Assembly: GCA_965603515.1 (NCBI GenBank)
Contig: CBFDDH010000005.1
Coordinates: forward strand, 27,886 to 91,885
Reading direction: 5' to 3'
Length of the DNA: 64,000 nt
DNA from: an uncultured bacterium
GTDB lineage: Bacteria > Hydrothermota > Tepidihabitantia > SM23-42
The translations under genes and the position numbers were made by a program. Of the stretch, positions 5,437 through 29,431 are shown one piece after another (within the stretch, counting starts at the first letter, position 1; each line of letters starts with the position of its first letter). The notes beneath the pieces are model-generated. The model made no database searches, was not told where the DNA came from, and saw only the letters and a list, made by a program, of their open reading frames with translations.

Positions 5437-5468
5437 TCATTTTGTCAATTAGCAAAATGACAAAATGA
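5437..5468. promoter_or_regulatory. 11-bp perfect inverted repeat TCATTTTGTCA-N10-TGACAAAATGA (operator-like), followed by a tandem CAAAATGA
   Basis: 5437-5447 and 5458-5468 are reverse complements. The repeat lies about 23 bp upstream of a -35 box. Confidence 0.6.
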
Positions 5469-5490
5469 GATGGCGCTCAATTGTAGATCC

Positions 5491-5518
5491 TTGACAATCA
5501 AGATTCTGTTTCTATAAT
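5491..5518 (+). promoter_or_regulatory. sigma70-type promoter TTGACA-N16-TATAAT for pseudo-receiver paralog B, near-leaderless
   Basis: TTGACA 5491-5496, TATAAT 5513-5518, ATG at 5529. No Shine-Dalgarno sequence. Confidence 0.5.
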
Positions 5519-5528
5519 TGCCATACTT

Positions 5529-6224: not shown

Positions 6225-6225
6225 A

Positions 6226-7767
6226 ATGTTTTCTGTTTTAATAGTAGTAATACTCTTCATCATCCCTCAAATTGTCACAGGACAAAATATATTTAAAGAT
6301 GTGCAAAATCGCTACCCGCGGGTGCGCCAAGCTCGAGAGAACTGTGAATACGATATTGACTCGCTTTTTCAAACGAGGGGCATTAACTATCCACCAGAAG
6401 AAATTTTAATAGTAGCTTATAAAAAAGAACGGCTTATTCACTTATGGGCACGCTCTGACACCAATAAAACTCTTCTTTTTATCAAACAATATCCCTTTAC
6501 TGCATTTTCCGGCACGCTCGGACCGAAACGTAAACAGGGTGATCTCCAGATACCTGAAAGCTTTTATTATATCAATCATTTTAATCCTTATTCCAACTTT
6601 CACTTATCCATGAAGATAAGCTATCCAAATCAATCAGATAGCATACTTGGTAAAAAAGGCAGTCTCGGCAATGAAATACGTATTCATGGAAGTTTTGTAA
6701 CTATCGGCTGTATTCCGATCGGCGATGAATCAATCGAAGAACTGTATATAATATGTGTTGATATGAAATCAAAAGGGCAACACAAGATACCGGTTTATGT
6801 CTTTCCAGGAAAGATGGACAAACAAAATTGGTCAGGATTAAAGCAAGTAGCCGGTCAGGATAGTATCCTGCTCAATTTCTGGCATAATTTGCGACAAGGC
6901 TATGATATCTTCACGGCAACACACCGAAAATTGAGTTATCGAGTTAACCTAAAAGGGCAGTATATTTACTCGTACGATCACTCACATTTAAATTCATTTC
7001 CGTGGCTCGATGTGCATAATGTCCAAAATTGCTTATTCAATAGGCTTGAACCACCCGCAGACTATGAACGGACATACTGTCCTCTCGGTTCTTTTGAAGA
7101 TTGGCTAAGACATTTACCTTTGAAACCAGGTAATCCACAGGTATACCTGTATAATGGGAATGAGAAATCCTATCAGAGTGGTCACTATGCAGTAGTCGAT
7201 ATTGACGTCGGGCAAGAAGATCTGCAGCAATGTGCCGATGCGATAATCAGACTTTATGCAGAATATCTGTTTTCAAAAAACTGTCTTGATAATATCATTT
7301 TTGATCTAACTAATGGTGATGCGGTTGGTTTCAGAAAATGGGTTTCAGGGTATCGACCATTAGTCAGTGGGAATACTGTAACCTGGCACAAACGTGCGGC
7401 TTCAGATTCTTCGTATGATACATTCCGTGCATATCTGAAATTCATTTTTGCATACGCTGGAACTTATTCGATAAGTCAGGAGACACAACGTATTGAAAAC
7501 CACCGTGATATGGTGATCGGTGATATATTTATCCAAGGCGGCTTTCCCGGCCACGCAGTCCTGGTTACTGATATGGCGACAAACCCCCGAACCGGTGAAA
7601 AAGTATTCTTGCTTAGCCAGAGTTATATGCCTGCCCAGGATATACATATTTTAAAAAATCTAAATGACCCGGATCTGAACCCCTGGTATAAACTGGATTT
7701 TGGCAATACCCTGCACACTCCAGAATGGACATTTGATACTGATGACTTAAAACGGATCACCCCTTGA
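6226..7767 (+). CDS. Secreted L,D-transpeptidase-like (YkuD-fold) protein with a large uncharacterised C-terminal domain
   Basis: 513 aa. N-terminal hydrophobic signal/anchor. GPKRKQGDLQIPESFYYI and IRIHGSFVTIGCIPI resemble the YkuD His/Cys catalytic core (HG[ST]...GC[IV]). Confidence 0.45.
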   Translation: MFSVLIVVILFIIPQIVTGQNIFKDVQNRYPRVRQARENCEYDIDSLFQTRGINYPPEEILIVAYKKERLIHLWARSDTNKTLLFIKQYPFTAFSGTLGPKRKQGDLQIPESFYYINHFNPYSNFHLSMKISYPNQSDSILGKKGSLGNEIRIHGSFVTIGCIPIGDESIEELYIICVDMKSKGQHKIPVYVFPGKMDKQNWSGLKQVAGQDSILLNFWHNLRQGYDIFTATHRKLSYRVNLKGQYIYSYDHSHLNSFPWLDVHNVQNCLFNRLEPPADYERTYCPLGSFEDWLRHLPLKPGNPQVYLYNGNEKSYQSGHYAVVDIDVGQEDLQQCADAIIRLYAEYLFSKNCLDNIIFDLTNGDAVGFRKWVSGYRPLVSGNTVTWHKRAASDSSYDTFRAYLKFIFAYAGTYSISQETQRIENHRDMVIGDIFIQGGFPGHAVLVTDMATNPRTGEKVFLLSQSYMPAQDIHILKNLNDPDLNPWYKLDFGNTLHTPEWTFDTDDLKRITP

Positions 7768-8618: not shown

Positions 8619-11600
8619 ATGAAAAGATCATTTATATTATTCATATCAATATTTACAGCATTCACATTATCATGTCAAAAAAAGAAAGCTTTTCAAGCTG
8701 GGTTTGAAATCCCGGAAGGACAAAAAAGAGACGTAGAAGTCCTCTATATAACACCGGAAGGCGGGACCGAAGGACTGAGTGAAGTAGGCGAAATACTCGT
8801 CTCCTTTAATCAGCCGATGGTTCCCCTCCAAGGCGTACCAGAATTTGAAAAGAGTGGACCACTTGAAATCAAACCGGAAATTAAAGGTAGATTCAGATGG
8901 CGCGGGACATCCACCGTATTTTTTATTCCGGATCAACCATTGGTCGGTGGAACCCAATACACATGCAAGGTTCCCAAAGGCACAAAATCCTTAACCGGAA
9001 CGCAGCTCAAAACAGACTACACCTGGCAGTTCACTACCGCACGACCACAGCTCAATACTTCGAACCCATATCACAATCAGAAATGGGTTGAGCTGGAGCA
9101 CAAAATATATCTTCTTTTCAATCAACCGATGTCACCGGGAAAAGTGAAATCCTTTATCAAGTTACTCGTGCGCGACGAAAAGAGTTTCGAAAAACCAGTT
9201 TCATTTAAAACACGATCCATGACTGACAAAGAGAAACAGGGGATCGGTGCCTACTGGAAATCAGAAAGAACGATCGTTATCAACCCAGACCAAGACCTGC
9301 CAATTGAAAGTGAGGTGATGATTAAATTGCTCGAGGGTTTACCCGGAGCTTCAGGTGACTATGGCATGGAACATGAACGAACCATAACCTTTCGAACCTT
9401 TAACTATTTTAGATTTGAGGGTCTTGATAATACTATACAAAACCCCCAGGAATCAGTAAGGTTCGAGTTCAGCAACCCCGTGGTATACCAGGATTTTATC
9501 AAACACATCAAATTTAACCCGGAAATAAAAATACCTGAGCATTATAAGAACTGGACACATTCCTCGACGCGACTCTATGTCTATGTAGACCTTAAACCCG
9601 ATACTAAATATCAAGTGTTTATTGACAAAGAACTGACTGACCGTTTCAACAATAAACTCGGTGAGGATATTGTCGCGACGTTCAAAACAACAGATTATGA
9701 ACCCCAGATCAAAATAGCTACTGGTCGCGGGATCGTTGAATCGTATTCAGCAAAGCGACATCCAATTACTGTTATCAATGTAAACCGGGTCGGTAAAAAA
9801 ATGGCGCTTTTGGAACGAAGTGAGATAATCCCCACGGTCCTTAGTAGTGGCGTATTTTATGGATGGCGCAAGTACAACCCGGTGTTTAATTATGACATTA
9901 ATGAAAAATGGAAAATCAATGGCGAAAGAAACAAACGGATCACGGTGCCACTTGAACTTAAGGATGTTCTACAGAACAAAGACGCTGGTTATGTTTTCTT
10001 TGAGATCGATGCATACAAAAAGCTCCGCTATGGGCGGCGATATTACCGAGGCTTACTCCAGATAACAAATATCGGCATTTCTGCTAAATTCTCGTCGGAA
10101 AATAATCTGGTATGGGTTACGACCTTGAAAGATGCCCAACCCCTCTACAATGCGCAAGTCGAATTACGTGACGATAAAAATCGCGTGCTCTGGCAAGGCA
10201 AAACTGACCAGGACGGTCTGGTCCAAACACCAGGGTGGAAACCATTAGGTCTAGTCCCCGAGAACGACTGGAACAAACCACGGATTTGGGTATTTGCCAG
10301 AAGCGGTAATGATGAAACATTTATTGTGTCAGATGAAGGCACTGGTGTTTATCCATATGAGTTTGGTATCTCATATGACTGGAGTCCTGAACCAGAGAAG
10401 TATCAAACTTATATCTTCACTGAGCGGGGTATCTACAAAAGCGGCGAAGATGTTTATATTAAAGGTATCATAAGAGAAAAACATAAGGGTACGTGGCGGA
10501 TATCCCGTAGTGTCAAAACCGTTGACCTCGAGATCTACAATTCGCGGGATGAACAGATATATAACAGGACAACCACTGTTTCAAAATATGGTTCCTTTGA
10601 CATCAAACTCCCTATTGCATCAGATGCTCCCACTGGTTGGTATGAAATAACTGCTGACCTACCTGGTGTTAAACCTAATTTCTACGGTTCATTCAGGGTC
10701 GAAGCTTACCGACCTGCACAATTCGAAGTAAAGGCACAGAGCGAAAAAGAAGAATACATCTTTGGCGATGAATTCGAGGGCGAAATAAAGGGGACTTATC
10801 TCTACGGCGGGCCGATGGCCGGAGAGAGTGCCGAGTGGATAATAACCCTTGATCATTCATATTATACACCACCTGGTCATAAAGGCTATCGATTTGGTCC
10901 ATCTTATTGGTACGATGATGAGGATTGGGAATTCGAAGGGGTTATTGGATCAGATGCTGGTGAACTTGACCAATATGGCAAAATGAAGCTACAAAAGAAA
11001 CTCGCTCAGGAAGATATACGAAGAACAATGCTACTTACTCTTGAAGGATCAGTGACTGCCGAAAATCGACAAACCCTTTCAGGACGAACAAATTGCCTGA
11101 TCCATTGTGGTGAGTATTATATCGGAATAAAACCCCAGAAAACGTTCATCGAAATAAAAAAATCAAGCCAGTTCGAGTTTATCACAACAAGACCCGATGG
11201 GGAATTGACCGTCAAGAAAAACATTAGCGTCGAGATCATCCGAAGGGAATGGATAAGTGTACGCAAAGCTGGTGTTGAAGGTAGATTCGAATGGATTACT
11301 GAGAAGAAAGACAGTATTGTCAGCAAATTCAAAGTGAAGACCAGCGAAAGTCCAGTCGCTAAGTCCTTTACGCCTGAAAGAACTGGCTTTTACATAATCA
11401 AAGCTCAGGGTAAGGATTCCCGTAACAATACCATCATTACGAGTACCTACTTTTACGTAACTGGTGCTGGCTATATATCTTGGCGAAGAAACGACGACGA
11501 CCACGTGGAGATTATCCCGGATGAAGAAAAGTACAAACCTGGCGATGTCGCAAAAATACTCGTTAAGTCGCCCTATGAAAAAACCCTTGCCTTAGTTACG

Positions 11601-14294
11601 ATCGAACGTGAGTTCATTATTGACAGATTTACTCAGGAGCTGATCGGATCGAGTGATCTCATTGAAATTCCGATTAATGAAAATTACTTACCCAATGTCT
11701 ACGTCTCGGTTATCCTCATCCAAGGTAGAAAAGGATTTGATAAATTTGATGAAGCAGGTAAGGATATTGGCAAACCATCTTTTAAAATTGGTTACACAAA
11801 TCTTAAGGTAGACCCTGGGACAAAACATCTTGATATTACAATTACTACTAACAAAGATGAGTATAGGCCTCAAGATTCAGTGATGGTGAAACTGAAGGTC
11901 GCTGACCATAAAGGTCAGGGGGTTAAATCAGAGATCATCCTCGCAGTAGTAGACGTTGGGGTACTGAACCTTATTGGTTTTGAAACACCTGACCCATTCC
12001 CCATGTTCTATGGCTCCAGACAACTCTCTGTACAAACTGCCGAGAGCCGACTGCATATTATAGGTCAAAGAACTTATGATGAAAAAGGCGAGAACCGTGG
12101 CGGCGGCGGAACAGCGGCGGCGCCCTTTGCCTACCGCTCTGAATTCTTGACAACCGCATATTATAATGCTCGTATCTATACGAATTCAAAAGGTGAAGCA
12201 GTAATACGCTTCAAATTACCCGATAACCTCACGACCTTCCGGCTCATGGCAGTCGGACACACTAAGGCCTCTTGTTTTGGTTCAAGTGATTCAAAGATCC
12301 GGGTGAAAAAACCGCTTTTGTTGCTTGAGGCATTACCCCGATTTGTCCGGCTCGGCGATGAATTCGAAGCCGGTATTGTTGTCCACAATAATACGAACGT
12401 TTCTGGTAACGTGGTGGTCGAAGCCTCGGCTGATAATATCACACTCGTTAATGAAAGCAAAGAAACGCTGGAAATCCCTGACGGTCAAGAAAAAGAAATA
12501 CGCTTTGAGTACCGCGCTCACCAGGTCGGTCAAGCAACCTTCAGATTCAAAGTGACCATGGGACAGGAATCAGATGGGGTTGAATTAAAAATACCCGTGA
12601 TCTCACCGCGTCTGACCGAGGCTGTTGCATTGTATAGCCAGACCATAGACAAAATCGCTGAAGCAATCACTGTACCAAAAGACATATACCCAGATGTTGG
12701 CTATATTGAGTTTACAACTTCGTCATCAGCGCTTGTCGGACTTGAAGGTGGTGTTGAATACCTTATTAAGTATCCGTATGAGTGTCTTGAGCAGAAGACA
12801 TCGAGGATTCTACCGTTCATCCTCGCTGAAGATTTAATCAATTCTTTTGACCTTTCTGAGCTGAAGGGCAAAGACCTTAGAAAAGAAGTCCAGAATACTC
12901 TAAAAGAATTCAAAGATTTTCAACATTACAATGGTGGCTTCAAGTTCTGGCCGGACTCCTGGTATCCATCACCATGGTTAACTGCTTATGCTGTAAATGT
13001 GCTCGCAAAAGCAAAAAAGAAAGGCTATTACGTTGACATGAACATGCTCAATAGAGCAATAGACTACTTGAAAGATGTACTACGCCGCAGCGATGTTGAT
13101 TGGGAATATCCCTATAATAAAAATGTTCAACTCACCACCAAATGCTTTATCCTGTATTCACTCGTGCTATGGGATGTCTACGACCACGGCTATATGTCCA
13201 GACTCTTTGACAAACGTGACCAGATCTCACTTTTTGGCAAAACCTTGTTGCTAAAATCAGCCCATATCTACGGAAATTCATATTACAGGAAAGAACTACG
13301 GAGGATGATCCTCAACAAAATACATATGGCATCGACTACTGCTCATTTTGAAGAACCGGATGCGATCGGCATGGCTTGGATATGGCACTCCAATGTCAGA
13401 ACTACTGCGCTTATTCTCCAGGCATTGCTCGAAACTGGCGGTGAATTTGCCAATGCGGAAAAGATAATCAAGTGGTTAGTAACCGAAAGGAAAATCGGTC
13501 GCTGGCGTTCAACTCAAGAAAATATCTATGTCTTTGATGCATTCAATACATATTTTAGAATCTACGAAAAACAAACCCCCGATTTCATGGCGACTGTCTA
13601 TCTTGAGAATAAGGAAATCCTAAAAGAAATCTTCAAAGGCAGGGAACTACAGATACGAAGAAAAGAAGTGGGATTAGGTGATCTGACAAAAGGCAAAAAA
13701 CTGCCGGTTAATATTGAAAAAAGTGGTGACGGACGACTATACTATGGTCTGCGCATGCTTTACGCCCCCACGCGCGAACTCAAACCACGGGATGAAGGTC
13801 TCGCAGTATTCAAAGTGGTGGAGCCGCTCGCTGAAGGACTCTCTGGTGATGAATTGAGCGCCGGTAAAATCTACAAGGTAACGCTCAGTATTGTTACGCC
13901 CCAAGAACGTAATTTCGTAGTAGTCGATGATCCGCTTCCAGCTGGTGTTGAGGTCATAAATACATCATTTGATACTGAAAGCAAACAACTCCTCAAAATG
14001 ATGGATGGTAACATGGACTACTATGATGAATATTATGTAGAAGATTATTACGGCGGTGAGTATGATGACTACTACTATTACTATCCATCATGGGGTACAT
14101 TCGACCACTGGGAAATCTATGATGAAAAAGTTCTTTTGTTTGCTGATGCCTTAAGAGCAGGCGAGCATACCTTCTCTTATCTCGTACGTGCAATGACATT
14201 TGGGAACTTTACAATGCCACCAACCAAAGCCGAGGAGATGTATACACCTGAGGTTTTTGGGTATAACAGGCAACGAAGACTGGTGGTCAAGTAG
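8619..14294 (+). CDS. Bacterial alpha-2-macroglobulin family lipoprotein (ECAM/YfhM-like) with an intact thioester motif
   Basis: 1891 aa. Signal peptide plus Cys (MKRSFILFISIFTAFTLSC). Thioester YPYECLEQKTSR (bacterial CLEQ form) around nt 12770-12800. Gly/Ala-rich putative bait region GENRGGGGTAAAPFAY about 230 aa upstream of the thioester. Many MG-domain-like beta-rich repeats. Unusual Tyr/Asp/Glu-rich C-terminal insert. Confidence 0.8.
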   Translation: MKRSFILFISIFTAFTLSCQKKKAFQAGFEIPEGQKRDVEVLYITPEGGTEGLSEVGEILVSFNQPMVPLQGVPEFEKSGPLEIKPEIKGRFRWRGTSTVFFIPDQPLVGGTQYTCKVPKGTKSLTGTQLKTDYTWQFTTARPQLNTSNPYHNQKWVELEHKIYLLFNQPMSPGKVKSFIKLLVRDEKSFEKPVSFKTRSMTDKEKQGIGAYWKSERTIVINPDQDLPIESEVMIKLLEGLPGASGDYGMEHERTITFRTFNYFRFEGLDNTIQNPQESVRFEFSNPVVYQDFIKHIKFNPEIKIPEHYKNWTHSSTRLYVYVDLKPDTKYQVFIDKELTDRFNNKLGEDIVATFKTTDYEPQIKIATGRGIVESYSAKRHPITVINVNRVGKKMALLERSEIIPTVLSSGVFYGWRKYNPVFNYDINEKWKINGERNKRITVPLELKDVLQNKDAGYVFFEIDAYKKLRYGRRYYRGLLQITNIGISAKFSSENNLVWVTTLKDAQPLYNAQVELRDDKNRVLWQGKTDQDGLVQTPGWKPLGLVPENDWNKPRIWVFARSGNDETFIVSDEGTGVYPYEFGISYDWSPEPEKYQTYIFTERGIYKSGEDVYIKGIIREKHKGTWRISRSVKTVDLEIYNSRDEQIYNRTTTVSKYGSFDIKLPIASDAPTGWYEITADLPGVKPNFYGSFRVEAYRPAQFEVKAQSEKEEYIFGDEFEGEIKGTYLYGGPMAGESAEWIITLDHSYYTPPGHKGYRFGPSYWYDDEDWEFEGVIGSDAGELDQYGKMKLQKKLAQEDIRRTMLLTLEGSVTAENRQTLSGRTNCLIHCGEYYIGIKPQKTFIEIKKSSQFEFITTRPDGELTVKKNISVEIIRREWISVRKAGVEGRFEWITEKKDSIVSKFKVKTSESPVAKSFTPERTGFYIIKAQGKDSRNNTIITSTYFYVTGAGYISWRRNDDDHVEIIPDEEKYKPGDVAKILVKSPYEKTLALVTIEREFIIDRFTQELIGSSDLIEIPINENYLPNVYVSVILIQGRKGFDKFDEAGKDIGKPSFKIGYTNLKVDPGTKHLDITITTNKDEYRPQDSVMVKLKVADHKGQGVKSEIILAVVDVGVLNLIGFETPDPFPMFYGSRQLSVQTAESRLHIIGQRTYDEKGENRGGGGTAAAPFAYRSEFLTTAYYNARIYTNSKGEAVIRFKLPDNLTTFRLMAVGHTKASCFGSSDSKIRVKKPLLLLEALPRFVRLGDEFEAGIVVHNNTNVSGNVVVEASADNITLVNESKETLEIPDGQEKEIRFEYRAHQVGQATFRFKVTMGQESDGVELKIPVISPRLTEAVALYSQTIDKIAEAITVPKDIYPDVGYIEFTTSSSALVGLEGGVEYLIKYPYECLEQKTSRILPFILAEDLINSFDLSELKGKDLRKEVQNTLKEFKDFQHYNGGFKFWPDSWYPSPWLTAYAVNVLAKAKKKGYYVDMNMLNRAIDYLKDVLRRSDVDWEYPYNKNVQLTTKCFILYSLVLWDVYDHGYMSRLFDKRDQISLFGKTLLLKSAHIYGNSYYRKELRRMILNKIHMASTTAHFEEPDAIGMAWIWHSNVRTTALILQALLETGGEFANAEKIIKWLVTERKIGRWRSTQENIYVFDAFNTYFRIYEKQTPDFMATVYLENKEILKEIFKGRELQIRRKEVGLGDLTKGKKLPVNIEKSGDGRLYYGLRMLYAPTRELKPRDEGLAVFKVVEPLAEGLSGDELSAGKIYKVTLSIVTPQERNFVVVDDPLPAGVEVINTSFDTESKQLLKMMDGNMDYYDEYYVEDYYGGEYDDYYYYYPSWGTFDHWEIYDEKVLLFADALRAGEHTFSYLVRAMTFGNFTMPPTKAEEMYTPEVFGYNRQRRLVVK

Positions 14295-15857: not shown

Positions 15858-18335
15858 CTATTGCTTCTGCTTAAGCTTTTCCAGTTTTTGTTTTTTCTTC
15901 TCTTCTTCTTCGGTTAAAACCTTGATCGTATGTTCGATCTCCTCTTTGGTAACCTTTTTTCGTAATTCTTCGACATCCTGCATGGTTTTCTGGAATCTCT
16001 TGCCTTCTGCCGCGCTGATCCATTCAAGCAACAACCTTTCTGGACGTATCCCCAATTTTTCCAATTTATCCCAGAGCTTCTCTACCCTCTTCTGGGTCCA
16101 GCGGTTAGCATCGATGTAGTGACAGTCAACATAATGACACCCAGATACAACAACCATGGGCGCACCGTTTCTAAATGCACTGAGGATGAATTCTTCATGG
16201 ACCCGTCCGCTGCACATCGTGCGGATGAGTCGCTGGTTGGATGGATACTGTAATCGGGCTCCACCACATGTATCAGCACCTGCATATGAACACCAGTTGC
16301 AAGCAAAAACGATCACCTTATCCTGTGGGTCTTCAGTCAGATGTGCATCGATCTGGGTTATGATTTGATCGTCTGTAAAATGTTTCATCGAAAGTGCACC
16401 AAAACGACATTCAGCTGCACACGTGCCGCAGCCTTTGCATAAAGCTTCAACATAGGTGATCGTTTTATTCTTCGGATCGACCGTGAAAGCATTATAAGGA
16501 CAAACTTTCGAGCACATAGCACAGTATCGGCAGAGATCCTGATTCAAGGTTGATGTTATCGCCTCGAGTTTGACCTTACCTGCAGAAAGCAATGTTTCAG
16601 CCCGTGCTGCCGCTGCACTCGCCTGAGTAACCGAATCCTTCACATCCTTGGGCGCTTCAGCACAACCGGCAAAGTACACTCCAGTCGTAGTTGCATCAAC
16701 AGGTTTTAGTTTCGGATGTGCCTCCATAAAGAAACCGTCCGGGCTCTTGGATAGCGTAAGGAGTTTCTGCACCTCGGGCATATCAAGTCTTGGTGTCACG
16801 CCAACAGAAAGTACCATCATATCAAATTCATGTTCTTCGATTTTATTGGCCGTGGTATCCTCAACCATAACCTTTAAATCGTGTGTCTTTGGATCCTCAA
16901 TTATATCACCAGGGATACCTCTGATATATGCAACACCGGCTTCCTTGCTGCGTTTGAAAAGATCTTCAAAACCTTTACCAAATGCTCTAATATCGATGTA
17001 AAAAACTTTGGCTTCAATGTCAGGATAGTGGTCTTTCAGTAATAATGTGTCCTTGATCGTGTTCATACAACAGATATTACTGCAGTATGGTTTGCCGATC
17101 TTCTCGCACCGGGATCCGACACATTGAATAAAACCAACGGTCTTGGGTCTTTTTCTATCGGTAGGTCTGATAAAATGGCCGTCTGAAGGTCCACCTGCTG
17201 ACATAAGCCGTTCATATTCCATGCTTGTTATGACGTTTTCGTATTTTGTATAACCGTATTCATCTAATTCTGTAGGATCATACACATCCATACCAGTAGC
17301 AACGATTACCGTACCTACATCAAATTTAATAACCTCATCTTTCATGTCGTAGTCAATACATTTCTTGTCACATTTCTCAGCACATTTACCGCAGGCGATC
17401 GGATTTATGCCAAGACAGGATTCCATATCAATGATTGAAGCAGAGGGTATGGCCTGAGGGAACGGGATATAAATCGCCTTGCGACATGAGAGTCCCTGTT
17501 GATACTCGTCAGGGATGATCACCGGACAGACTTCAGCACAATCACCACATGCTGTACATTCTTCTGCGTTTACATAACGGGCTTTCTTGAGCACATTAAC
17601 ATGGAAATTCCCCACGTAACCCGAGATAGATTCTACCTGGCTATGTGTTAAGAGTGTTATGTTGGGATGTCGACCGACATCCATCATTTTCGGACCGAGT
17701 ATTCATATCGCACAATCCATAGTAGGATAGGTCTTTGCCAGCTGAGCCATTATACCACCGAGAGCTGGGTTTTTCTCAACCAGATATACTTTGTAACCAG
17801 CATCAGCAAGATCAAGACTTGATTGCATACCAGATATGCCACCACCGATAACGAGCGTTGCTTTAGTCACTGGTATTTCTGTCTCATCCTGAGCTTCGAG
17901 ATAACGAGCTCGAGCAATATAAGCTTTCATAATATCTTTTGCTTTCTTTGTCGCGGCTCCACGATCGTCCATATGAACCCAAGAACATTGTTCACGGATA
18001 TTCGCCATATCAACGAGATAAGGGTTAAGACCTACTGAAGAAACACACTCCCGAAATGTCGGCTCATGCATACGTGGCGAACATGCAGCAACAATAACAC
18101 GGTTGAGTTTTTGTTCTTTGATCGCCTTTTTTATCTCTGCTTGCCCAGGTTCAGCACACATATATCGGTTCTTTGCCGTGTATACGACATTACCGATTTC
18201 TTTAGCATCCTCGACGAGTTTGTCGACATCGACTGAACCAGCTATATTCGTACCACATTCGCACACAAAAACACCAATCCTTAAATCATCCTGCGGCACT
18301 TTAATCACCTCCTTTGTGGATAAGGTTATCCTCAA
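15858..18335 (-). CDS. hdrA: HdrA (heterodisulfide-reductase subunit A family flavoprotein) with a C-terminal MvhD domain. Selenoprotein: the in-frame TGA at 17703-17705 is read as Sec. The ORF track splits it into 17703..18335 and 15858..17687.
   Basis: Across the TGA the protein reads ...[26 protein letters not shown]. This aligns to the canonical HdrA ...[25 protein letters not shown], where Sec takes the place of the second Cys. N-terminal CxCGxNI 4Cys domain. GGGISGMQSSLDLADAG FAD motif. Multiple CxxCxxCxxxCP ferredoxin motifs. C-terminal MvhD (FACNWCSYAGAD...VVSGCHYVDCHY). Confidence 0.8.
17665..17682 (-). promoter_or_regulatory. SECIS-like hairpin in the mRNA: GGAUGUC-GGUC-GACAUCC (7-bp stem, GGUC loop), 20 nt downstream of UGA 17705..17703
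   Basis: Perfect stem. The GGUC apical loop resembles the SelB-binding loop of the E. coli fdhF SECIS. The identical 18-nt sequence occurs after the second in-frame UGA, at 25630-25647. Confidence 0.55.
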
Positions 18336-18338
18336 TCT

Positions 18339-19223
18339 TCATACTTTCACACTTCCATTTATCTTCTCCAATACTTTGTCTGCTTTTATTCGATGGGTAT
18401 GCAGACCAACCTGCTCGACAGTCAAACCCTGTGCAAGACCGAGCAGCTGGAAAAGATAAATAACCGGAATATTATAGCTCTTTCCCTTTTTACGGGATAT
18501 CATTATTTGACCTAAATCAAATGAAGAAAAACATGTCGGGCAGATCAAACCCATACAATCAGCACCACTTTTCTCGATCGATGCAAAGATCGCTTCAGTC
18601 ATTTCCAAGGGCAGTTCATCATCCATACATCCTTTTCCGCAACATAATACTTTTTCATGATGTTCAAGCGGGATTGCACCCATGGCAGTTATAAAGTCTT
18701 CAAGTATATCCGGGTAATCAGCATCATCAACATGCATAACCTGACTCGGTTTTAATATGTGACAACCATAATGAATCGCCACGGTAATTTCTTCAAGGGA
18801 TTTTTTTATTGATTTCTTTACTGCTTCGAGACCAAGATCATCTCTTATCATCTCAACGGCATGCTTTATTATTATCTTACCTTTATATTCCCGATTAATT
18901 CTCTTCAATCGTTTATTCACCTCATCTTTCAATGCTGGGTCTTCATTAAGGAGAAATTGTGCTTCTTTCAGAGTTGAGATACACCCGGAGCACATCGTAA
19001 TCAGCATATGTCCAGTCTCTTCAGCTACCGCTAAATTTCGAGTGGCCGTTACCAACCATTTCATCTTATCACGTGACTTGAAGTAAATAGGATCGGGGCA
19101 ACATGTAAAATTTTCAATATCAACAAGCTCAACACCTAATAGCGGTAAAGTGTTTCTCAGTGCCAATTCCATTTGAGGGTATTTGAGAGGCATCATACAA
19201 CCCCAGAAAGGCACGACCTTCAT
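18339..19223 (-). CDS. hdrB: HdrB-like subunit (two CCG cysteine-rich domains)
   Basis: 294 aa. CCPD...C and LCCGKGC / CPTC motifs typical of HdrB CCG domains. Confidence 0.75.
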   Translation of the reverse strand: MKVVPFWGCMMPLKYPQMELALRNTLPLLGVELVDIENFTCCPDPIYFKSRDKMKWLVTATRNLAVAEETGHMLITMCSGCISTLKEAQFLLNEDPALKDEVNKRLKRINREYKGKIIIKHAVEMIRDDLGLEAVKKSIKKSLEEITVAIHYGCHILKPSQVMHVDDADYPDILEDFITAMGAIPLEHHEKVLCCGKGCMDDELPLEMTEAIFASIEKSGADCMGLICPTCFSSFDLGQIMISRKKGKSYNIPVIYLFQLLGLAQGLTVEQVGLHTHRIKADKVLEKINGSVKV

Positions 19224-19273: not shown

Positions 19274-19795
19274 TTATTTATCGATCGTTTCATCGGCTGG
19301 TGTTACTTCTTTATCTTCAAGGATTGTATTTAACTCATCGATCGGGATCGTCTTCAGTACTGGAAGCCCTAATTGCTCTCTTCTTCTGTTGATTGCTGAA
19401 GATACTGTCACACTCATGCCGGTTTTCGCAATATTATCTGAAAGCTTGGCCAAGTTGACAGGTGCAGTTCCTTTTTCTACGGCCATGTTCTTGAGGGCAA
19501 CAATCACCTCAATAGGACGCACGTCCTGCGGGCATCTTTCATAACAGGAATAGCAATTCGTACAGAGCCATATCGCTGAATCCTGACCCAGGAGTTCTTC
19601 TTCCATACCCAACAATGCCTTTAATAATATTTTTCGCGGGTTGAACTCTTTTGAAAACCTTGCGGTTGGACAGACTGCAACACAGGCACTACATTGATAG
19701 CAATAGTTATGATGCTTTCCGCCGGATACCTTATTTAGCTTTTCGCGAAATCGGTAATTTACTACTATTTTATCTTTTGCCATTTTAGCCACCAT
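19274..19795 (-). CDS. hdrC: HdrC-like 4Fe-4S dicluster subunit
   Basis: 173 aa. CYQCSACVAVCP and CTNCYSCYERCP. Confidence 0.75.
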   Translation of the reverse strand: MVAKMAKDKIVVNYRFREKLNKVSGGKHHNYCYQCSACVAVCPTARFSKEFNPRKILLKALLGMEEELLGQDSAIWLCTNCYSCYERCPQDVRPIEVIVALKNMAVEKGTAPVNLAKLSDNIAKTGMSVTVSSAINRRREQLGLPVLKTIPIDELNTILEDKEVTPADETIDK

Positions 19796-20927
19796 CTAAC
19801 AAATCTGCAATAAGCGTAACCAATTGGATGGTTTCAATCTTCACATCCTCACCTACTTTATCATCCTTCATCGCACAATTAAAGTGAATCTCACATTTTG
19901 GGCAAGCCAGCACCAAAAGGTCTGCTCCAGTCTGTTTTGCCTCTTTCAAACGTGCAAGTTGTATACTCTTCGAATATGTAGAACAGTTAATCCATGCACT
20001 GACACCACAACATATTGCACTCTTTCTGCTTCTTGCCATTTCTTTCAATTCCAATTGTGGAACCGAAGTAATGGCTTTTCTTGGTTCATCATAAATACCA
20101 AGATGCCTTCCAAGTCTGCAGGGATCCTGATAAGAAACGGTTTTGGCGAGTTCCTTAAGTTTTATTTTTCCTTGATCGATCGCTTCAGCTATGACTTCAG
20201 TAATATGTTGCACTTCAAAATTGCATTCAAAATATTTGGGATAATCAATTTTGAATGTCCGATATCCCTCAGGACACGAAAAAATAATCTTTTTTACCCC
20301 TACTTTATTGATTTCATTAATATTGTATTGCGCCAGTCTTTTGAAATTATCCAGTTCTCCACCCCATAAGAGATCATGTCCACAACAGCGTTCATTGGGT
20401 AACACTACTGGTGTGATACCTAAATGATTGAGAATTTTTATGCTGGCTTTGGCAGCTTTTATTGTATTGATCTCGATATCTTTAAAAAGGACATCAAAAT
20501 AAGGCAAGCATCCAACGAAATATAGTGTCTCACCTGATCCGGCAACCTTCAAATCATTATCGATCCAATCCATGCGTTTCTGTTGAAGATCTGGTGTCGA
20601 CATAATACGCATCAATGATTGTGCAGCACCACCATGCGAACAGATCGCTTCTTCACCGATTTTCTGTGCTTCCTGACGGGTAGCAAGGGTCAGATCGATA
20701 TAGTCGATATTGGCCGGACATCTTTCATCACAGAGTTTGCATGTCAAACAAGCCCAGATATTCTTGTCCTTTAATAACTCAAGCTGACCACTACGAATTG
20801 CTTTATTAACTAATATGCGTGGCGAATAGCCATGATTAAATCGTGATATTGGACATGAACCCGTACATTTACCGCATTCAAGACATAAATAAGCTCTGGA
20901 TTCTTTTATCGCCTTTTTAATACTCAC
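19785..20927 (-). CDS. HdrD-like fused iron-sulfur (HdrC-type) + two-CCG-domain (HdrB-type) protein
   Basis: 380 aa. CLECGKCTGSCP and CLTCKLCDERCP, followed by CCGHD... and CCG-type motifs (ICCGVSAW, CPKCEIHFNC). Confidence 0.7.
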   Translation of the reverse strand: MSIKKAIKESRAYLCLECGKCTGSCPISRFNHGYSPRILVNKAIRSGQLELLKDKNIWACLTCKLCDERCPANIDYIDLTLATRQEAQKIGEEAICSHGGAAQSLMRIMSTPDLQQKRMDWIDNDLKVAGSGETLYFVGCLPYFDVLFKDIEINTIKAAKASIKILNHLGITPVVLPNERCCGHDLLWGGELDNFKRLAQYNINEINKVGVKKIIFSCPEGYRTFKIDYPKYFECNFEVQHITEVIAEAIDQGKIKLKELAKTVSYQDPCRLGRHLGIYDEPRKAITSVPQLELKEMARSRKSAICCGVSAWINCSTYSKSIQLARLKEAKQTGADLLVLACPKCEIHFNCAMKDDKVGEDVKIETIQLVTLIADLLDGG

Positions 20928-21385
20928 TTTACATCCTCAACCTGATTATCTGATACTTTAATGACCTTCTTAATGGAACTCGGACCAAGTTTTCTGATCG
21001 TCGCGGTGAATGCTTGAGCAACCTTGGCAAACTTTGTGGCTTCGGCCGATGAAATCCAATCAAGCATGAGTCTTTCTTTTTCAATACCGATCATCGCAGT
21101 AAGTTGCTCAGTGATCTTGTGAACATCAGCTGCCTTTTTTGCACCAAACATATAATGACAATCTTCAAAATGGCATGTGGCAACCAAAACACCATCAGCA
21201 CCCAATTCAAATGCCTTCAAAACCAACCCCGGGGTCACTCTGCCACCGCACATAACCCGCACAATGCGGATATTTGTAGGATATTGAAGTCGCGAAACAC
21301 CCGCACCATCGGCAGCTGGATAAGAACACCAATTGCAGCAGAATGCGACTATCTTTGGCTCAAAATTCTCCTTTGGTAAATCCAT
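20924..21385 (-). CDS. mvhD: Stand-alone MvhD (methyl-viologen-reducing hydrogenase delta subunit-like) [2Fe-2S] electron-transfer protein
   Basis: 153 aa. FCCNWCSYPAADGAG...RVMCGGRV...VATCHFEDCHY. Confidence 0.8.
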   Translation of the reverse strand: MDLPKENFEPKIVAFCCNWCSYPAADGAGVSRLQYPTNIRIVRVMCGGRVTPGLVLKAFELGADGVLVATCHFEDCHYMFGAKKAADVHKITEQLTAMIGIEKERLMLDWISSAEATKFAKVAQAFTATIRKLGPSSIKKVIKVSDNQVEDVK

Positions 21386-21431: not shown

Positions 21432-24400
21432 TTAACCAAATAATGCTTCCAGCTGTGCTTCGATTTGTTCGCTCATGAAATGTTTCAAGTCAATTGCACC
21501 GGTCGGGCAAGCAGGTACGCAAGTTCCACAACCTTTACACAGTGCTTCATTGACCTGGGCGACAAAAATACCTTTTTCTTTTTCAATAAGTTCAATTGCA
21601 TGGAATTCACAGACTTCTGCACACCGACCACAACCGCGGCAATAGACCTCATCAACGATCGATGTTATCGGTGCCAGACTTATTTTATCACGGCTCAGCA
21701 GTCCAGACACTTTCGATGCAACTGCGGATGCCTGAGATATTGAATCCCCAATGTCTTGCGGGAATTGACAACAACCACATAAAAACACTCCTTCAACTGT
21801 AGTTTCAACCGGACCGAATTTCGAATGACGTTCCAGGAAGAATTTATCTGGACCCCTTGGTACTTTTAATAACTCAGAAAGGCGCAAAGAATCCTCAGCA
21901 GGAACCATGCCTACGGAAAGCACAATGAGGTCGACTGGCACACTGATCTCAGCATTGAGGTCCACTGACGAAACCGTTATCTGGTTAGCCATATCAGTAC
22001 CGGAAATCTCCGGTTCATCCTCATACGGTAAAAAGAGCACACCTAATTCCCGTGCTTTCCGATACATCCGTTCGGCACCTTTTGAATAAACCCTGACGCC
22101 GCGGTTTAATATCGCGACATCAATGCCTTTTTCTTTAAGATATATCGCCTCTTTTATTGCGGCTTGACAACAGTATCGAGAACATCCTGGATTACCAGCA
22201 TCCCCTCTCGACCCAACGCACTGTACAAAGGCAACTGATTTGATATTCTTAATATCACCCTTCAGGATCTTCTCTTCCAATTCCATATTGGTTATCACAT
22301 TCTTATATCGACTATAACCATATCTTTGGGCTGGATCGTAAAGACTAGCCCCAGTAGCTAAAACAATAGCACCTACTGTAAATTCGGTTTCTTTTCCTTT
22401 AATGTTCAGTTTTACCTGAAAATTCCCAACATAACCAGTGACATCTGTCAGCTCTGCAGAAATTAAGAATTCGCCACCTGCTTTGGTGAATTCATCGATC
22501 AATTTAGTGATAATGTCTTTACCCGGCTTGAAACTTGGATAAATACTCGATAAATCACGCACCAAACCGCCGGGAGCTTCATTCTTCTCAATGATCTTAA
22601 CCTTAAAGCCACGCAAAAGCAGGTCAAGTCCACACCTTAACCCGGTTATGCCACCACCGATTATTGCAACATCCCGGTTAACTGACAGTTCTTTCAAGTA
22701 GAGCGGTTTGAGTTCTCTGACACGCGCGACTGACATTCTTACCAATTCCTTGGCCTTGGCAGTTGCTTTTTTAGGTTCTTTCTGGTGCACCCACGAACAT
22801 TGATTTCTAATATTCGCGATATCGAAAAGGTAAGGATTTAGACCAATCATAGTCAACGAATCCTGAAAACTCGGTTCATGTGTTTTAGGCGTACAGGCAG
22901 CGACCACGACTCTATTGAGTTTGTTTTCGGCGATACGCTCCTGCAGCTTACGTTGGTCAGTTTCTGAACAGGCGAAAGTATAATCTTCCGCAAAAACCAC
23001 CCCCGGCAAAGTCTTGGCATATTCTACTACTGACTTCACATCAACGACCTTTGAAATATTGGGTCCACAATGGCAGACAAAGACACCGACTCTTGGCGGT
23101 CCGGAAATATCGACTTGTTCGATATCTGGCTCTTCAATCTCCAGTTCTTGTCCTTTGAGAAAAAGCGATGCTTTAACCGCTGCTCCGCTGGCTTCAGCGA
23201 TCGAGTCAGTAATGTCTTTGGGCCCGGTTGCACATCCGCAGACCAAAATTCCTTGTTTCGTGGATTCCAGAGGTTTAATTGCTGGCTCTGCATTCTTGAA
23301 AAAGCCATCTTGGTCAGTTTCAACACCAAGCACATCGGCCAGTTCCTGGCAACCATTGGGTGGGATCAAAGCTGAAGCTAAACAGACAGCGTCAAAAACC
23401 ATTTTTGATGAGTATCCCTGGTCGTCCTCATAATGAATGATCAAATCACCATTTTCATCTTCAATGACCTTGGATGGCTTTCCTTTAATATATTTCACGC
23501 CTTTTTCTACTGAACGATTATAGAATTCTTCAAAACCCTTACCAAATGCCCTTATATCAATATAGAACACAGTGATTTCAATATCTGGATAGTGTTCTTT
23601 CAATACCAGACTGTCTTTTATCGTATTCATACAGCATATGCGACTACAATAATTAATATCCCGGCGCATATTACGTGAACCAACACATTGAATAAATGCA
23701 AAACGGATAGGTCCTTTTCTTTCTTTGTCAAGAGCAAGTTCACCATTAGTTGGACCATCTTCACTCATTATTCTTTCCAGCTCAAAAGAGGTATAGATAT
23801 TTTTGAAACGTTTATAACCATATTCACTCGCTTCTTTAGGATCGAGATAATCGATTCCCGTCGTCACAACGATCGAGCCAATATCAAGATCAATGAATTC
23901 ATCTTCCATGTCATGAACAATAGCTTGAGGCTCACAGGCCTTTACACACTCCAAGCACTCAGCACACCCTGCGCAGTTGAGACAGCGGTCAGCTTCTTTT
24001 TTTGCTTGTAGTGCAGAAAATCCCAGCGAGACTTCATCAAAACTCTTTTTGGACTTTTCCAGATCAAGAACTGGCATTTTTTTCCGAGCGGTTGTCTCGA
24101 GACCATCCGGTATATCGATGTCTTCATCCACAACGCGCGCCGGTTTTTTCTCTCTTCCTTCTTTAAGATCAACTCCTCTAATGAATCTATCTATTGATTC
24201 AGCAGCTTCTTTCCCCGCTGCAATTGCCTCGATTACGGTTGCTGGTCCGGTCACAACATCACCACCAGCAAAAACGCCAGCAATAGTTGTTTGCAGTGTA
24301 TCTGGGTCAACTTTGAATGTTCCCCAGCGTGTTAACTCAAATTGATTTTCCTTGTTTAGAAATGAAACATCGACAGCTTGACCAATTGCCATAATAACCA

Positions 24401-25835
24401 TATCAAGATCTATGGTGAATTCAGAACCTTCAATTGGTACCGGTCTTCTTCTTCCCGAGGCATCTGGTTCACCAAGTTGCATCTTTACACACTCTATCCC
24501 GGTAACCTTGCCATCTTCACCAAAAACCTTGGTTGGCGCCGCCAAGAAATGGATTTTAATCCCTTCCTTCTCAGCTTCCAGCACTTCTTCTTCATTAGCC
24601 GGCATCTCTCGCTGTGACCGGCGATATACAATAAAAACTTCTTCTGCACCTAAACGCAAAGCAGTACGGGCAGCATCAATCGCGGAATCCCCACCGCCAA
24701 TCACAGCAACTTTTTTACCAACCGTGGTCTTATCGTCCATAATCGTTTTTTTAAGAAACTCGACACAGAATTCCACCCCCTTTAAATCCTCACCTTCGAT
24801 CCCCATGGATTTTTCCTTTGCAGCGCCTACGCCAAGGAAGATTGCCTTAAAATCTTGATCGAAGATATCTTGAATTCCGAAATCTTTACCAAGCGCAATA
24901 CCGGTTTTAATCTCAACACCCCAGCTCTTTATATAATCTAAATCGCGTTTAAGGGATTTTTCAGGTAACCTGAATCTGGGGATTGCCCAGTATAGGAGTC
25001 CTCCAGGATGATCAGTGGCTTCATAGACGGTTGAGCAGTACCCTTGTTTAGCAAGAAAATAGGCAGCCGACAAGCCAGCAGGTCCAGCACCAATAATGGC
25101 GATTTTTTCTTTGGTCAATTTTGGCATTGCCGCTGGTTCATTATCTACTGGTTCTTGGTCAGCAATGAAACGTTTTAACTGTGCTATTGCTAAAGGTTCA
25201 TCAATATCTTTACGTTTACACTCTGATTCACAAGGGTGAGTGCATACTCTTCCGCAAACTGATGGAAAGGGATTGTCACGTCTTTCTAAATCCAATGCTT
25301 CCTGTGATTTACCTTGAGATATAAGAGCAACATAGCCCTGCACATTAACCCCAGCCGGACAAGCATACCGGCACGGTGACCATCCTTTTTTATCAATAAT
25401 GAATTTATTCGGAACGGCTTGCGGATACTGACGGTATATTGCCTCATGCTTCGACAAATCCAGTTCAAACTCGTTGTCGAGTTTCACTGGACAAACTGAA
25501 GGACATTCACCACAGCCAGTACACTTATTCCAGTCAACATAAGTGGATTTGTGTTTGATCTTCACTTTAAAATTTGGAGCTTCCCCGTCGACTTGAACCA
25601 CTTCGCTGTTTGTGAAAAGTTCAATGTTCGGATGTCGACCGACATCCATTAACCGAGGACCGAGGATTCAACCAGTGCAATCCATCGAGGTGAAGATCTT
25701 ATGGATTTGTGAAGTCCGACCGCCAAGACATGGACCATGCTCAATAAGATAAACCTTAAAATCAGCATGTGCCAAATCCAAAGCTGATTGGATACCAGCC
25801 ACCCCTCCACCGATTACTAATGCTCCTTTTTGCAT
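21432..25835 (-). CDS. HdrL-like giant flavoprotein: HdrA N-terminal FAD module (with Sec), an NfnB/GltD-like NAD(P)H:ferredoxin module, a second HdrA-like module, and ferredoxin domains. The ORF track starts it at 25649, after the Sec codon.
   Basis: Real start is ATG at complement 25835..25833: [56 protein letters not shown](TGA 25670..25668)[14 protein letters not shown]. GltD-like CRYACPAG...[13 protein letters not shown] plus [19 protein letters not shown] and [16 protein letters not shown] Rossmann folds. Second HdrA core [19 protein letters not shown]...[12 protein letters not shown]-terminal 2x[4Fe-4S]. Confidence 0.75.
25630..25647 (-). promoter_or_regulatory. SECIS-like hairpin GGAUGUC-GGUC-GACAUCC, 20 nt downstream of UGA 25670..25668
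   Basis: Identical at nucleotide level to the hairpin at 17665-17682, with the same spacing from the UGA. Confidence 0.55.
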
Positions 25836-25866: not shown

Positions 25867-26424
25867 TTATTGTGGATCCTTTTGTTTTTTTAGAAGTTCA
25901 AGACCAAAATTATAGCCGTGTTTAAAAGCCTTTATGTTTAAATCCAGAGCTTTTTCAGGAACTGAGCCAGGCAAAGCCTTTTCCATGGCTTCGCATGTCA
26001 CTATCCCGGTTATCGCAGTGAAGAACCCCAACATAACAACATTAGCCACAATTTTCTTGCCGAGCTGTTCAGCAAAACGCGTTGCCGGAATAAGATGGAC
26101 CTTAATATTCCCCCGGGGTGACTTGTGCTTCACTAAATTTTCGTCAACGAGTAATATACCGTTTTCTTTGAGTTCCGGTTCGAACTTATCATAACCCTCC
26201 TGGGACATGACAACCAAAACATCAGAATTAGTGACATATGGATATAGTACTTTGGTTTCTGATACCACGAGCTGAGAGCTGCAAGCACCACCCCTTGCTT
26301 CCGGGCCAAAGGATTGACTCATTGTACCATATTTGTTATCATAAAGCGAAGCTGCCTTACCGACAATTATCCCGGATCTTATAATACCTTGACCACCGTA
26401 ACCGGCGAATCTAATCTCCGCCAT
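25867..26424 (-). CDS. 2-oxoacid:ferredoxin oxidoreductase gamma subunit
   Basis: Likely start MAEIRFAGYGGQGIIRSGIIVGKAA (GGAGG 5 nt upstream), not the longer track ORF. Gamma/PorC-like fold. Confidence 0.7.
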   Translation of the reverse strand: MAEIRFAGYGGQGIIRSGIIVGKAASLYDNKYGTMSQSFGPEARGGACSSQLVVSETKVLYPYVTNSDVLVVMSQEGYDKFEPELKENGILLVDENLVKHKSPRGNIKVHLIPATRFAEQLGKKIVANVVMLGFFTAITGIVTCEAMEKALPGSVPEKALDLNIKAFKHGYNFGLELLKKQKDPQ

Positions 26425-27196
26425 TTTTGCCTCCGGGATCCGCTCCTGATCTGATTCCATGTGGGGTGAATTTCTCTCCCAACACACTGCTGAGCTGAGC
26501 ATTATATTGGTCGATAAATGTTGGTCTTTCTTTGCTTGTGAATTTGCCCACGATAATTTTGCTATCCGGTTTGATCCCCACATTCTTCGGGTCTTCACTA
26601 TTCCTTATCTCCGAGTTATCATAGTAAAAACGTACCAGATCAATATTCACCTTGCTAATACTGGTATAATAGTCAGGGCCTGGCGCCAGAATTTCAATAA
26701 CTGACAGACCTTTTTTGCCCAATGCCTCGGCAATCGAAGCGGCGAGTTCCTCAGTATGCAAAGCTGTCCAACGTGCGGTATATATTGCACTGCACGAGTT
26801 TCCAAGATGTGGGATATTGAATGGTTCTTCAAAGGTTGAATAGGGTGAGAATTTCTGAGCCGCAGAGGGTACTGATTTACCGGCGATTTTTCTGTACACA
26901 AAATTATTAATACATATCACCGTAAGTTCCATATTTCTTCGACTGCCATGCACAAAGTGATTGCCACCGATCGTCATAAGGTCACCTGCGAAGGGGACAA
27001 CTTTGAGAGCAGGGTTGGCTAATTTTAGACCAGTTCCAAAAGCAATGGCTCGACCGCGTGTCGTATGGAAATAATCAAAACCGAACCGTTTGACTGTCTC
27101 TGGTTCAAACAAAATGTCTGAAGGCACACAAACCTGGTCAGGTTTCACCCCAGCCTTTTCAAGGGCTTGGGCAAATGTCGTGATTATTTCATTCAT
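26411..27196 (-). CDS. 2-oxoacid:ferredoxin oxidoreductase beta subunit (TPP-binding), copy 2
   Basis: GDLMTIGGNHFVHGSRRN (TPP Mg-binding GDG-like). 261 aa. Confidence 0.8.
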   Translation of the reverse strand: MNEIITTFAQALEKAGVKPDQVCVPSDILFEPETVKRFGFDYFHTTRGRAIAFGTGLKLANPALKVVPFAGDLMTIGGNHFVHGSRRNMELTVICINNFVYRKIAGKSVPSAAQKFSPYSTFEEPFNIPHLGNSCSAIYTARWTALHTEELAASIAEALGKKGLSVIEILAPGPDYYTSISKVNIDLVRFYYDNSEIRNSEDPKNVGIKPDSKIIVGKFTSKERPTFIDQYNAQLSSVLGEKFTPHGIRSGADPGGKNGGD

Positions 27197-28434: not shown

Positions 28435-28526
28435 CCGTCAGACCTCCTTTCAACCATCTTTCAATATAACGCTTACCTATTCCAAACGTTAAATGTTTTT
28501 TCTCTGTACCGCTATCTTCATAAGGT

Positions 28527-29420: not shown

Positions 29421-29431
29421 TCTACACTCCC

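Follow-up and report, generated by a model that had tools for sequence, protein, structure and literature searches.

HdrA is among the commoner selenoprotein families of bacteria and counted 16 selenoproteins in 2006 (Zhang et al. 2006, PMC1794560). Bacterial selenocysteine (Sec)-containing HdrA proteins, as in Syntrophobacter, Syntrophus, Moorella, Carboxydothermus and others, are linked to MvhD/FrhD and GlpC/HdrD-like proteins and use an in-frame bacterial selenocysteine insertion sequence (SECIS); those described in PMC1794560 come from Deltaproteobacteria and Clostridia and often lie in hdrA-frhD-frhG-frhA hydrogenase operons. HdrL of Desulfobacterium autotrophicum HRM2, a fusion of HdrA with glutamate synthase (GltD), is followed by mvhD, and hdrL1 and hdrL3 encode selenoproteins (PMC2702500). 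Here, a hdrA2 gene and a neighboring HdrL-like gene were analyzed in a stretch of 64,000 nucleotides (nt) from an uncultured bacterium of candidate division WOR-3 (assembly GCA_965603515.1, contig CBFDDH010000005.1, positions 27,886 to 91,885 of the forward strand; hereafter the window). Comparative evidence makes it very probable that UGA codon 199 of hdrA2 is read as Sec by means of an in-frame SECIS hairpin downstream of it.

Sec-containing HdrA is also found in Methanococcales (M. maripaludis, with Sec197, and M. jannaschii), where the SECIS lies in an untranslated region and the machinery is archaeal. In HdrA, Cys197 of the thioredoxin-reductase-like domain serves in trans as a ligand to the N-terminal [4Fe-4S] cluster in the partner HdrA (PMC9012536). 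In the cryo-electron microscopy structure of M. maripaludis HdrA the residue is Sec197, and the density was read as a bridge of Cys and Sec linking cluster A3 to the flavin adenine dinucleotide (FAD); the role of Sec197 was explicitly called unresolved in that study, and a Cys-Sec selenylsulfide relay was proposed (PMC13518236). HdrA2 of Methanosarcina (NCBIfam family NF040770) is a Cys protein acting on CoM-S-S-CoB.

The window protein belongs to the same family as Methanococcales HdrA and has the same residue in the C-x-x-U/C motif of the FAD domain, but its host is a bacterium, it is fused to MvhD and its putative SECIS is a bacterial in-frame hairpin. It shares the MvhD/FrhD and GlpC/HdrD-like linkage and the in-frame SECIS with the known bacterial forms, and differs from the set of PMC1794560 in its WOR-3 host, in the lack of an adjacent hydrogenase, in the Cys-form MvhD and HdrD-like protein beside it, and in the position of its operon after oxidoreductase genes. 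Its domain order is that of Methanosarcina HdrA2, whereas the Sec form predominates in the bacterial clade to which it belongs. The neighboring 1467-residue protein resembles HdrL of D. autotrophicum HRM2 in its HdrA and GltD-type modules, the adjacent mvhD and its predicted Sec, a likeness of features and not a claim of orthology.

Evidence that two open reading frames form one hdrA2 gene

A first-pass annotation had reported an in-frame TGA in an HdrA-MvhD gene, and its position, frame and translation are as described there. In the list of open reading frames (ORFs), 17703..18335 and 15858..17687, both on the minus strand and in the same frame, are separated only by this TGA, which is read from 17705 to 17703 in frame with both. 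The minus-strand reading across the site is ATG GAT TGT GCG ATA TGA ATA CTC GGT CCG AAA ATG ATG GAT GTC GGT CGA CAT CCC AAC.

The joined product was analyzed with Cys placed at the TGA. It gives one match to the HdrA2 profile NF040770 (residues 7-789 on profile positions 1-777, 1161.3 bits against a curated cut-off of 1100), and its residues 5-652 align to the solved HdrA chain 5ODC_A with no gap at the TGA (E 3.5e-233); all five solved HdrA chains align uninterrupted across the site. Residues 659-776 align to the separate MvhD chain 5ODC_D. The Pfam matches comprise a Rossmann/FAD signature at 149-186, 4Fe-4S (Fer4) domains and a complete FlpD/MvhD domain at 662-778. Together with the 5ODC alignments they give the order N-terminal iron-sulfur (FeS) domain, thioredoxin-reductase-like FAD domain with an inserted ferredoxin, C-terminal ferredoxin and MvhD. 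The single HdrA2 match above the cut-off and the gap-free alignment to solved HdrA across the TGA support the view, also that of the first-pass annotation, that the two ORFs are parts of one HdrA2 gene.

The length given in that annotation, 825 codons, did not stand, because the conserved start is GTG 18299 and not TTG 18335. This GTG is preceded by AAAGGAGGTGAT; ATG occupies the position in eight relatives, in several of which an in-frame TAA lies directly upstream, and both the start codon and the ribosome-binding site are conserved in relatives. The predicted product thus consists of 198 residues, Sec and 614 residues, 813 in all.

Alternatively, the TGA could be a true stop, with polypeptides of 198 and about 610 residues assembling after translation into a genuinely split HdrA. 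Gene callers and public annotations treat the locus as two genes, an ATG-ATG pair lies 15 nt past the TGA, and split or multi-gene HdrA has been described in D. autotrophicum (PMC2702500). The internal ATG, however, has no ribosome-binding site (Shine-Dalgarno sequence) upstream, and the break would fall at a conserved Cys inside the FAD domain, severing the dinucleotide-binding Rossmann motif from the remainder.

Distribution of the in-frame TGA among HdrA2 homologues

To place the site among its homologues, the best 120 database matches to the protein were compared, 113 of them full length and 7 fragments. All 113 full-length homologues (61-65% identity) carry DCSIC[VI]LG with a Cys aligned to the TGA, in agreement with the earlier placement of the UGA at the second Cys of the HdrA FAD-domain motif; those with a source name are from Chloroflexota or Dehalococcoidia. 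In the alignment to 5ODC_A, residue 199 corresponds to Cys197. The 7 closest proteins (85-92% identity) are all fragments of 600-609 residues starting with (M)MDVGRHP, and were therefore cut at the same codon as the window gene. TGA also stands at this codon in each of the four contigs from which the closest fragments derive, and the DNA after it is almost identical.

A DNA survey with one genome per species found 80 loci, the nearest being metagenome-assembled genomes (MAGs) of candidate division WOR-3 (86-88% amino-acid identity), the lineage to which the window is assigned on this basis. Of the 80 genomes, 68 have TGA as codon 199, and these 68 span more than a dozen groups at phylum level. 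By record title, these include WOR-3, Ignavibacteria, Neomarinimicrobiota, Zixiibacteriota, Calditrichota, Anaerolineae/Caldilineae, Acidobacteria, Gemmatimonadota, Eisenbacteria, Krumholzibacteriota, Armatimonadetes, Planctomycetota, Desulfobacteria/Thermodesulfobacteriota, Fidelibacterota and Glassbacteria. The remaining 12 have TGT or TGC; all belong to Chloroflexota, most of them to Dehalococcoidia. In the 72 genes with a stop at the site it is always TGA, never TAA or TAG.

This TGA/TGY pattern across the 80 loci is not explained by a nonsense mutation, an assembly error or a real gene boundary; no genuine boundary was found at the site in orthologues, which have a conserved TGA and a SECIS-type hairpin instead. 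A pseudogene or sequencing error might be suspected in a metagenome-assembled contig, but the same TGA occurs in 68 of 80 independent genomes and 4 further contigs, the frames are intact with strong protein conservation on both sides, and the feature recurs in a second paralogue of the operon. The comparative data refute this explanation in practice, and its likelihood is negligible. As to other possible Sec codons, a split hdrB in locus L003 and a short mvhD in locus L001 were inspected, and neither has a conserved in-frame TGA.

The codons next to the site are also biased. The codon after UGA encodes Ile (AUH) in all 72 tabulated Sec-form hdrA2 genes, and it is AUA in locus L049 too, whereas the corresponding codon is Val (GUN) in 11 of the 12 Cys forms; the codon before the site is AUA in 68 of 72 Sec forms versus 7 of 12 Cys forms. 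This bias may reflect an influence of codon context on the decoding of UGA.

A putative SECIS element overlaid on a conserved peptide

A hairpin, GGAUGUC-GGUC-GACAUCC, begins 20 nt after the UGA, and its loop starts 27 nt after it. Folding of the UGA with 60 nt gave a minimum free energy (MFE) of -10.5 kcal/mol at site 17705 and -13.7 kcal/mol at site 25670, the latter in the HdrL-like gene. Among 75 TGA sites, the stem is paired at 7 of 7 positions in 71, with G-U allowed, and at 6 of 7 in three more, while one Phycisphaerales genome has a hairpin in a different register in its place; it is fully paired in only 1 of 12 Cys genes. The loop is GGUC at 72 of the 75 sites, and RNAalifold yields the same helix.

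Synonymous codon usage also differs between the two classes. Within codons +8 to +12 of the 72 TGA-class hdrA2 genes, those for Asp (GAT, 71/71), Val (GTC, 67/67), Gly (GGT, 71/71) and His (CAT, 72/72) are invariant, and Arg is encoded by CGA or CGG, both of which pair. Synonymous entropy is zero at the invariant codons versus 1-2 bits in the flanking codons. In the Cys class (12 genes), the same five codons have entropies of 1.0-1.95 bits, even though the peptide itself, MMDVGRHP, stays the same. Fisher tests of the hairpin codons between the two classes gave p values of 2.6e-5 to 7e-13, which overstate the independence of sequences that are phylogenetically related. One stem pair covaries (U-A 59, U-G 11, C-G 4), the C-G cases coming with a Val-to-Ala change.

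The bacterial SECIS (bSECIS) model, as quoted in PMC13188914, asks for an apical loop of 3-9 nt on an upper stem of 4-16 bp, a G at one or both of the first two loop positions (G[G|U]), a UGA-to-loop distance of 16-37 nt and an MFE of -7.5 kcal/mol or lower. The window hairpin agrees in all four respects, with its 4-nt loop on a 7-bp stem, a loop that opens with GG, a distance of 27 nt and the MFE given above. A further lower stem of 3 bp (AUG/CAU), predicted in the window, was dropped since it is not kept in relatives.

The SECIS of Escherichia coli fdhF is the reference for bacteria. Taken from NC_000913.3, it is likewise an in-frame hairpin after the UGA, with an identical apical GGUC loop; this loop starts 18 nt after the UGA compared with 27 nt in the window. 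A U bulges from the upper stem of fdhF, whose lower stem is longer, in contrast to the plain 7 bp of the window hairpin, which has no conserved lower stem. A megablast search of the window gene against E. coli gave no match.

Some loci depart from the common pattern. In the Cys-form gene of L054 (Dehalococcoidales; 4586-4651), the hairpin is paired at 7 of 7 positions with a GGGC loop and may be a fossil SECIS that outlived a change from Sec to Cys. Two planctomycetotal loci, L079 (4589-4654) and L049 (about 4570-4640), keep the TGA and have divergent hairpins and peptides (MMEAWRHP and MLDVRQHP, respectively); L079 pairs GGCG/CGCC in another register, and in L049 the stem has 6 bp and the loop reads GCGUCA.

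Several observations weigh against decoding of the UGA as Sec through this hairpin, the relatedness behind the p values among them. With so little variation in the stem, covariation is confined to one pair, and the single-sequence folding energy of the region is not unusual (z = -0.09), which is why the comparative data were relied on. A permissive Rfam scan of 17600-17730 found no SECIS family, and a scan of the whole window at gathering thresholds found only tRNA-Ala; such elements in bacteria are too small and diverse for this miss to count against a SECIS, and the folding energy says equally little about so small a hairpin. Finally, the 64-kb window and about 20 kb of contig on its flanks yielded no selA, selB, selD or tRNA-Sec gene. 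NCBIfam searches gave no sel genes among the 46 window ORFs, the contig flanks beyond both window ends had none, and ARAGORN reported nothing relevant in the window or in 60 loci.

The unremarkable folding energy and the missing Rfam match would also agree with a hairpin that is no SECIS at all, for example a translational pause or RNA-stability signal. Such a signal is extremely unlikely, given the strict co-occurrence of the hairpin with TGA, its decay in the 12 Cys genes even though MMDVGRHP is kept, and a loop, spacing and size that fit the bSECIS model, with the same loop as fdhF. A genuinely split HdrA, too, predicts neither the exclusive use of TGA in 72 genes nor a hairpin with frozen synonymous sites that tracks the TGA and is lost in Cys forms, and is highly improbable. 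On the comparative evidence, the 18-nt hairpin almost certainly acts as a SECIS, to which SelB is predicted to bind.

Genetic code and selenocysteine machinery

TGA ends 14 of the 46 window ORFs, that of hdrB included, and a scan of the window for TGAs lying in frame between long open stretches found only two inside homologous genes. The genetic code is therefore standard, and UGA is not reassigned genome-wide.

The UGA might still be decoded as an amino acid other than Sec, through genome-wide reassignment to Trp or Gly or through SelB- and SECIS-dependent insertion of Cys. The latter is carried out by a Sec-like tRNA-Cys(UCA) in some anaerobic bacteria, and Sec and Cys inserted by the same SECIS route are indistinguishable from sequence; moreover, Sec-synthesis genes were not seen in the window and its flanks. 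Reassignment is ruled out by the stop-codon usage and by the lack of other genes with in-frame TGA. Insertion of Cys by costly recoding is rare and leaves unexplained why 68 genomes of numerous phyla have kept TGA rather than TGY, and the homologous archaeal residue is demonstrably Sec (PMC13518236). Decoding as another amino acid is thus very unlikely.

Components of the Sec machinery were also sought among relatives. A tblastn search of the DNA of the collected loci with E. coli SelA, SelB and SelD gave a sole match, selB in L078, a Phycisphaerales MAG with the same TGA and hairpin. This selB (region 5360-7300) lies 31 nt downstream of hdrA2 and matches TIGR00475 at 341 bits against a cut-off of 242. 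A literature search on WOR-3 and selenocysteine gave nothing useful.

A second predicted selenoprotein gene in the operon

The HdrL-like gene carries a second predicted Sec codon, absent from the first-pass annotation. The gene starts at ATG 25835, whereas the ORF list has only 21432..25649 (1405 residues) and omits the first 62 codons (55 before the Sec codon, that codon itself and six after it). The same TGA and split occur in the HdrL-like genes of relatives (L001:2131 and L002:1051).

By BLASTP, residues 1-148 of the HdrL-like protein match residues 144-291 of HdrA2 with 51% identity. A GltD-type NAD(P)H module comes next, and residues 627-901 match HdrA2 303-579. A second HdrA module follows, in which residues 915-1148 match HdrA2 7-241 and residues 1141-1464 match HdrA2 315-652. 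The domains found are Fer4_20, Pyr_redox_2 and stretches of the HdrA2 profile, and the next gene is mvhD. The two modules show complementary losses: module 1 has CxxU and lacks the N-terminal FeS domain, and module 2 has the N-terminal FeS domain and lacks DCxxC at the expected place.

The pattern is the complementarity of Cys197 and the N-terminal domain known from HdrA proteins that are fused or in tandem (PMC9012536). The complementary modules of the HdrL-like protein suggest an intramolecular pseudo-dimer, and lend support to the idea that the Sec may work across the module interface.

Proposed decoding and role of the selenocysteine residue

In the proposed mechanism, SelB with its Sec-tRNA(Sec) would be brought to the ribosome by the 18-nt hairpin, which would let the UGA be decoded rather than end translation; the action of SelB and tRNA-Sec in this organism is what we infer from the hairpin and its conservation. 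The hairpin appears to have been made from the codons of MDVGRHP by fixing their synonymous positions, and the HdrL-like gene would use the same device at codon 56. The Sec would lie in the C-x-x-U motif of the thioredoxin-reductase-like FAD domain, its chemistry there being presumed from homologues: Sec199 is at the position of the trans ligand Cys197 of solved HdrA and of the Sec197 of the proposed selenylsulfide relay in M. maripaludis.

A wider joint reading can be offered only tentatively, and as a whole it is rather doubtful. It holds that selenium sits at the interface of HdrA modules, as a trans [4Fe-4S] ligand or as a switchable selenylsulfide beside the cluster, and that the Sec form with its SECIS is ancestral, is dominant in bacterial HdrA2 of more than a dozen phyla and spread as a unit, the Cys form being a derived loss in Dehalococcoidia. 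The interface would then lie between HdrA2 protomers and, within the HdrL-like chain, between module 1 with its CxxU motif and module 2 with its N-terminal domain.

Genomic context

The coordinates of the hdr features are collected in Table 1. On the minus strand, the order is oxidoreductase sets, the HdrL-like gene (Sec), mvhD, the HdrD-like gene, hdrC, hdrB and hdrA2 (Sec), with hdrB and hdrC directly upstream of hdrA2 on the same strand. The linkage of oxidoreductase and hdr genes is also found in L001 and L002. No hydrogenase genes are adjacent to the hdrA2 cluster, and no methanogenesis genes are in view.

Table 1 Features of the hdr cluster and its predicted selenocysteine codons in the window.
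Feature	Position	Strand	Basis
hdrA2 (HdrA-MvhD fusion), 813 residues including predicted Sec199	15858..18299	-	Translation, Pfam, NCBIfam NF040770, 5ODC_A alignment, start/ribosome-binding site conservation
Stop codon of hdrA2, TAG	15858-15860	-	Translation
Bacterial SECIS-type hairpin, 7-bp stem GGAUGUC/GACAUCC, loop GGUC, over codons for (M)DVGRHP	17665..17682	-	Folding, pairing, synonymous constraint, covariation
In-frame UGA, predicted Sec, residue 199, CxxU motif with Cys196	17703..17705	-	Homologue Cys, Cys197 of 5ODC HdrA, TGA in 68/80 genomes
hdrB, two CCG domains; own TGA 18339-18341 a genuine stop	18339..19223	-	Pfam CCG; TIGR03288, 3-290 of 290 profile positions
hdrC, 4Fe-4S dicluster	19274..19795	-	Pfam; TIGR03290
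HdrD-like protein, Fer4 dicluster and CCG domains	19785..20927	-	Pfam, NCBIfam
Stand-alone mvhD, Cys form, intact ORF	20924..21385	-	Pfam FlpD 1-123/123, E 2.8e-48
HdrL-like gene (two HdrA modules and GltD-type NAD(P)H module), 1467 residues including predicted Sec56	21432..25835	-	TGA scan, domains, BLASTP
Second SECIS-type hairpin, identical 18 nt GGATGTCGGTCGACATCC	25630..25647	-	Sequence, folding -13.7 kcal/mol
Second in-frame UGA, predicted Sec56 of HdrL-like protein, CxxU motif	25668..25670	-	TGA scan and sequence
Two consecutive 2-oxoacid:ferredoxin oxidoreductase sets (alpha/beta, then alpha/beta/gamma)	25867-30649	-	Directly upstream of hdr cluster

The gene content suggests that the products of the hdr cluster could form a soluble complex linking ferredoxin, NAD(P)H and a disulfide. 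This complex would probably be flavin-based and electron-bifurcating or confurcating, its physiological substrates being a matter of conjecture from the neighboring genes. CoB-CoM heterodisulfide reductase activity of HdrA2 is unlikely in the WOR-3 bacterium.

Some further features were noted around the cluster. The ORF of the oxidoreductase gamma subunit (25867-26598, minus strand, 243 residues) overlaps the preceding gene by 188 nt and matches its family from residue 59-60; the true start of this gene is probably further downstream. In the close relatives L002 (7563-8273) and L004 (2542-3252), a gene for a DsbD_2-family membrane protein, absent from the window, lies between hdrC and hdrB. 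Near the hdr cluster, on the opposite strand, 8619-14294 (plus) encodes a bacterial alpha-2-macroglobulin of 1891 residues with full MG, bait-region and TED domains. A pst phosphate-transport operon at 31874-33363 (minus strand) has two tandem pstB genes, only one of which reaches the TIGR00972 cut-off.

Implications for annotation and selenium dependence

That HdrA is a selenoprotein family of methanogens and anaerobic bacteria is already known (PMC1794560, PMC13188914), and the first-pass annotation had pointed this out for some methanogens and Deltaproteobacteria. The position of the Sec and the textbook bacterial SECIS are known as well, and the known picture of Sec decoding is unchanged. 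What is new is modest: the WOR-3 host, the predominance of the Sec form among the closest bacterial HdrA2 proteins of 80 species genomes, a SECIS that hardly varies because it is superimposed on a conserved peptide, and the truncation of the clade's proteins in public annotations.

Public records of the clade hold only the truncated C-terminal part of about 600 residues. The 90% protein cluster of 15858-17687 has 77 members, those listed being 518-610 residues long and nearly all 600-610, and one member, KPK64032.1 of WOR_3 SM23_42, is named 'methyl-viologen-reducing hydrogenase subunit delta'. As a result of this truncation, homology searches return mainly Cys forms and hide the predominance of Sec (68 of 80). 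The two predicted selenoprotein genes of the operon need re-annotation.

In addition, the complementarity of CxxU and the N-terminal domain in the HdrL-like protein would add comparative evidence on the role of the Sec197 position across the interface. WOR-3 is to be counted among the lineages that use Sec once the machinery is confirmed. An Hdr-type, probably electron-bifurcating complex encoded after oxidoreductase genes would depend on selenium. If the tentative reading of an ancestral Sec at the module interface were true, abundant uncultured anaerobes would be selenium-dependent for electron bifurcation.

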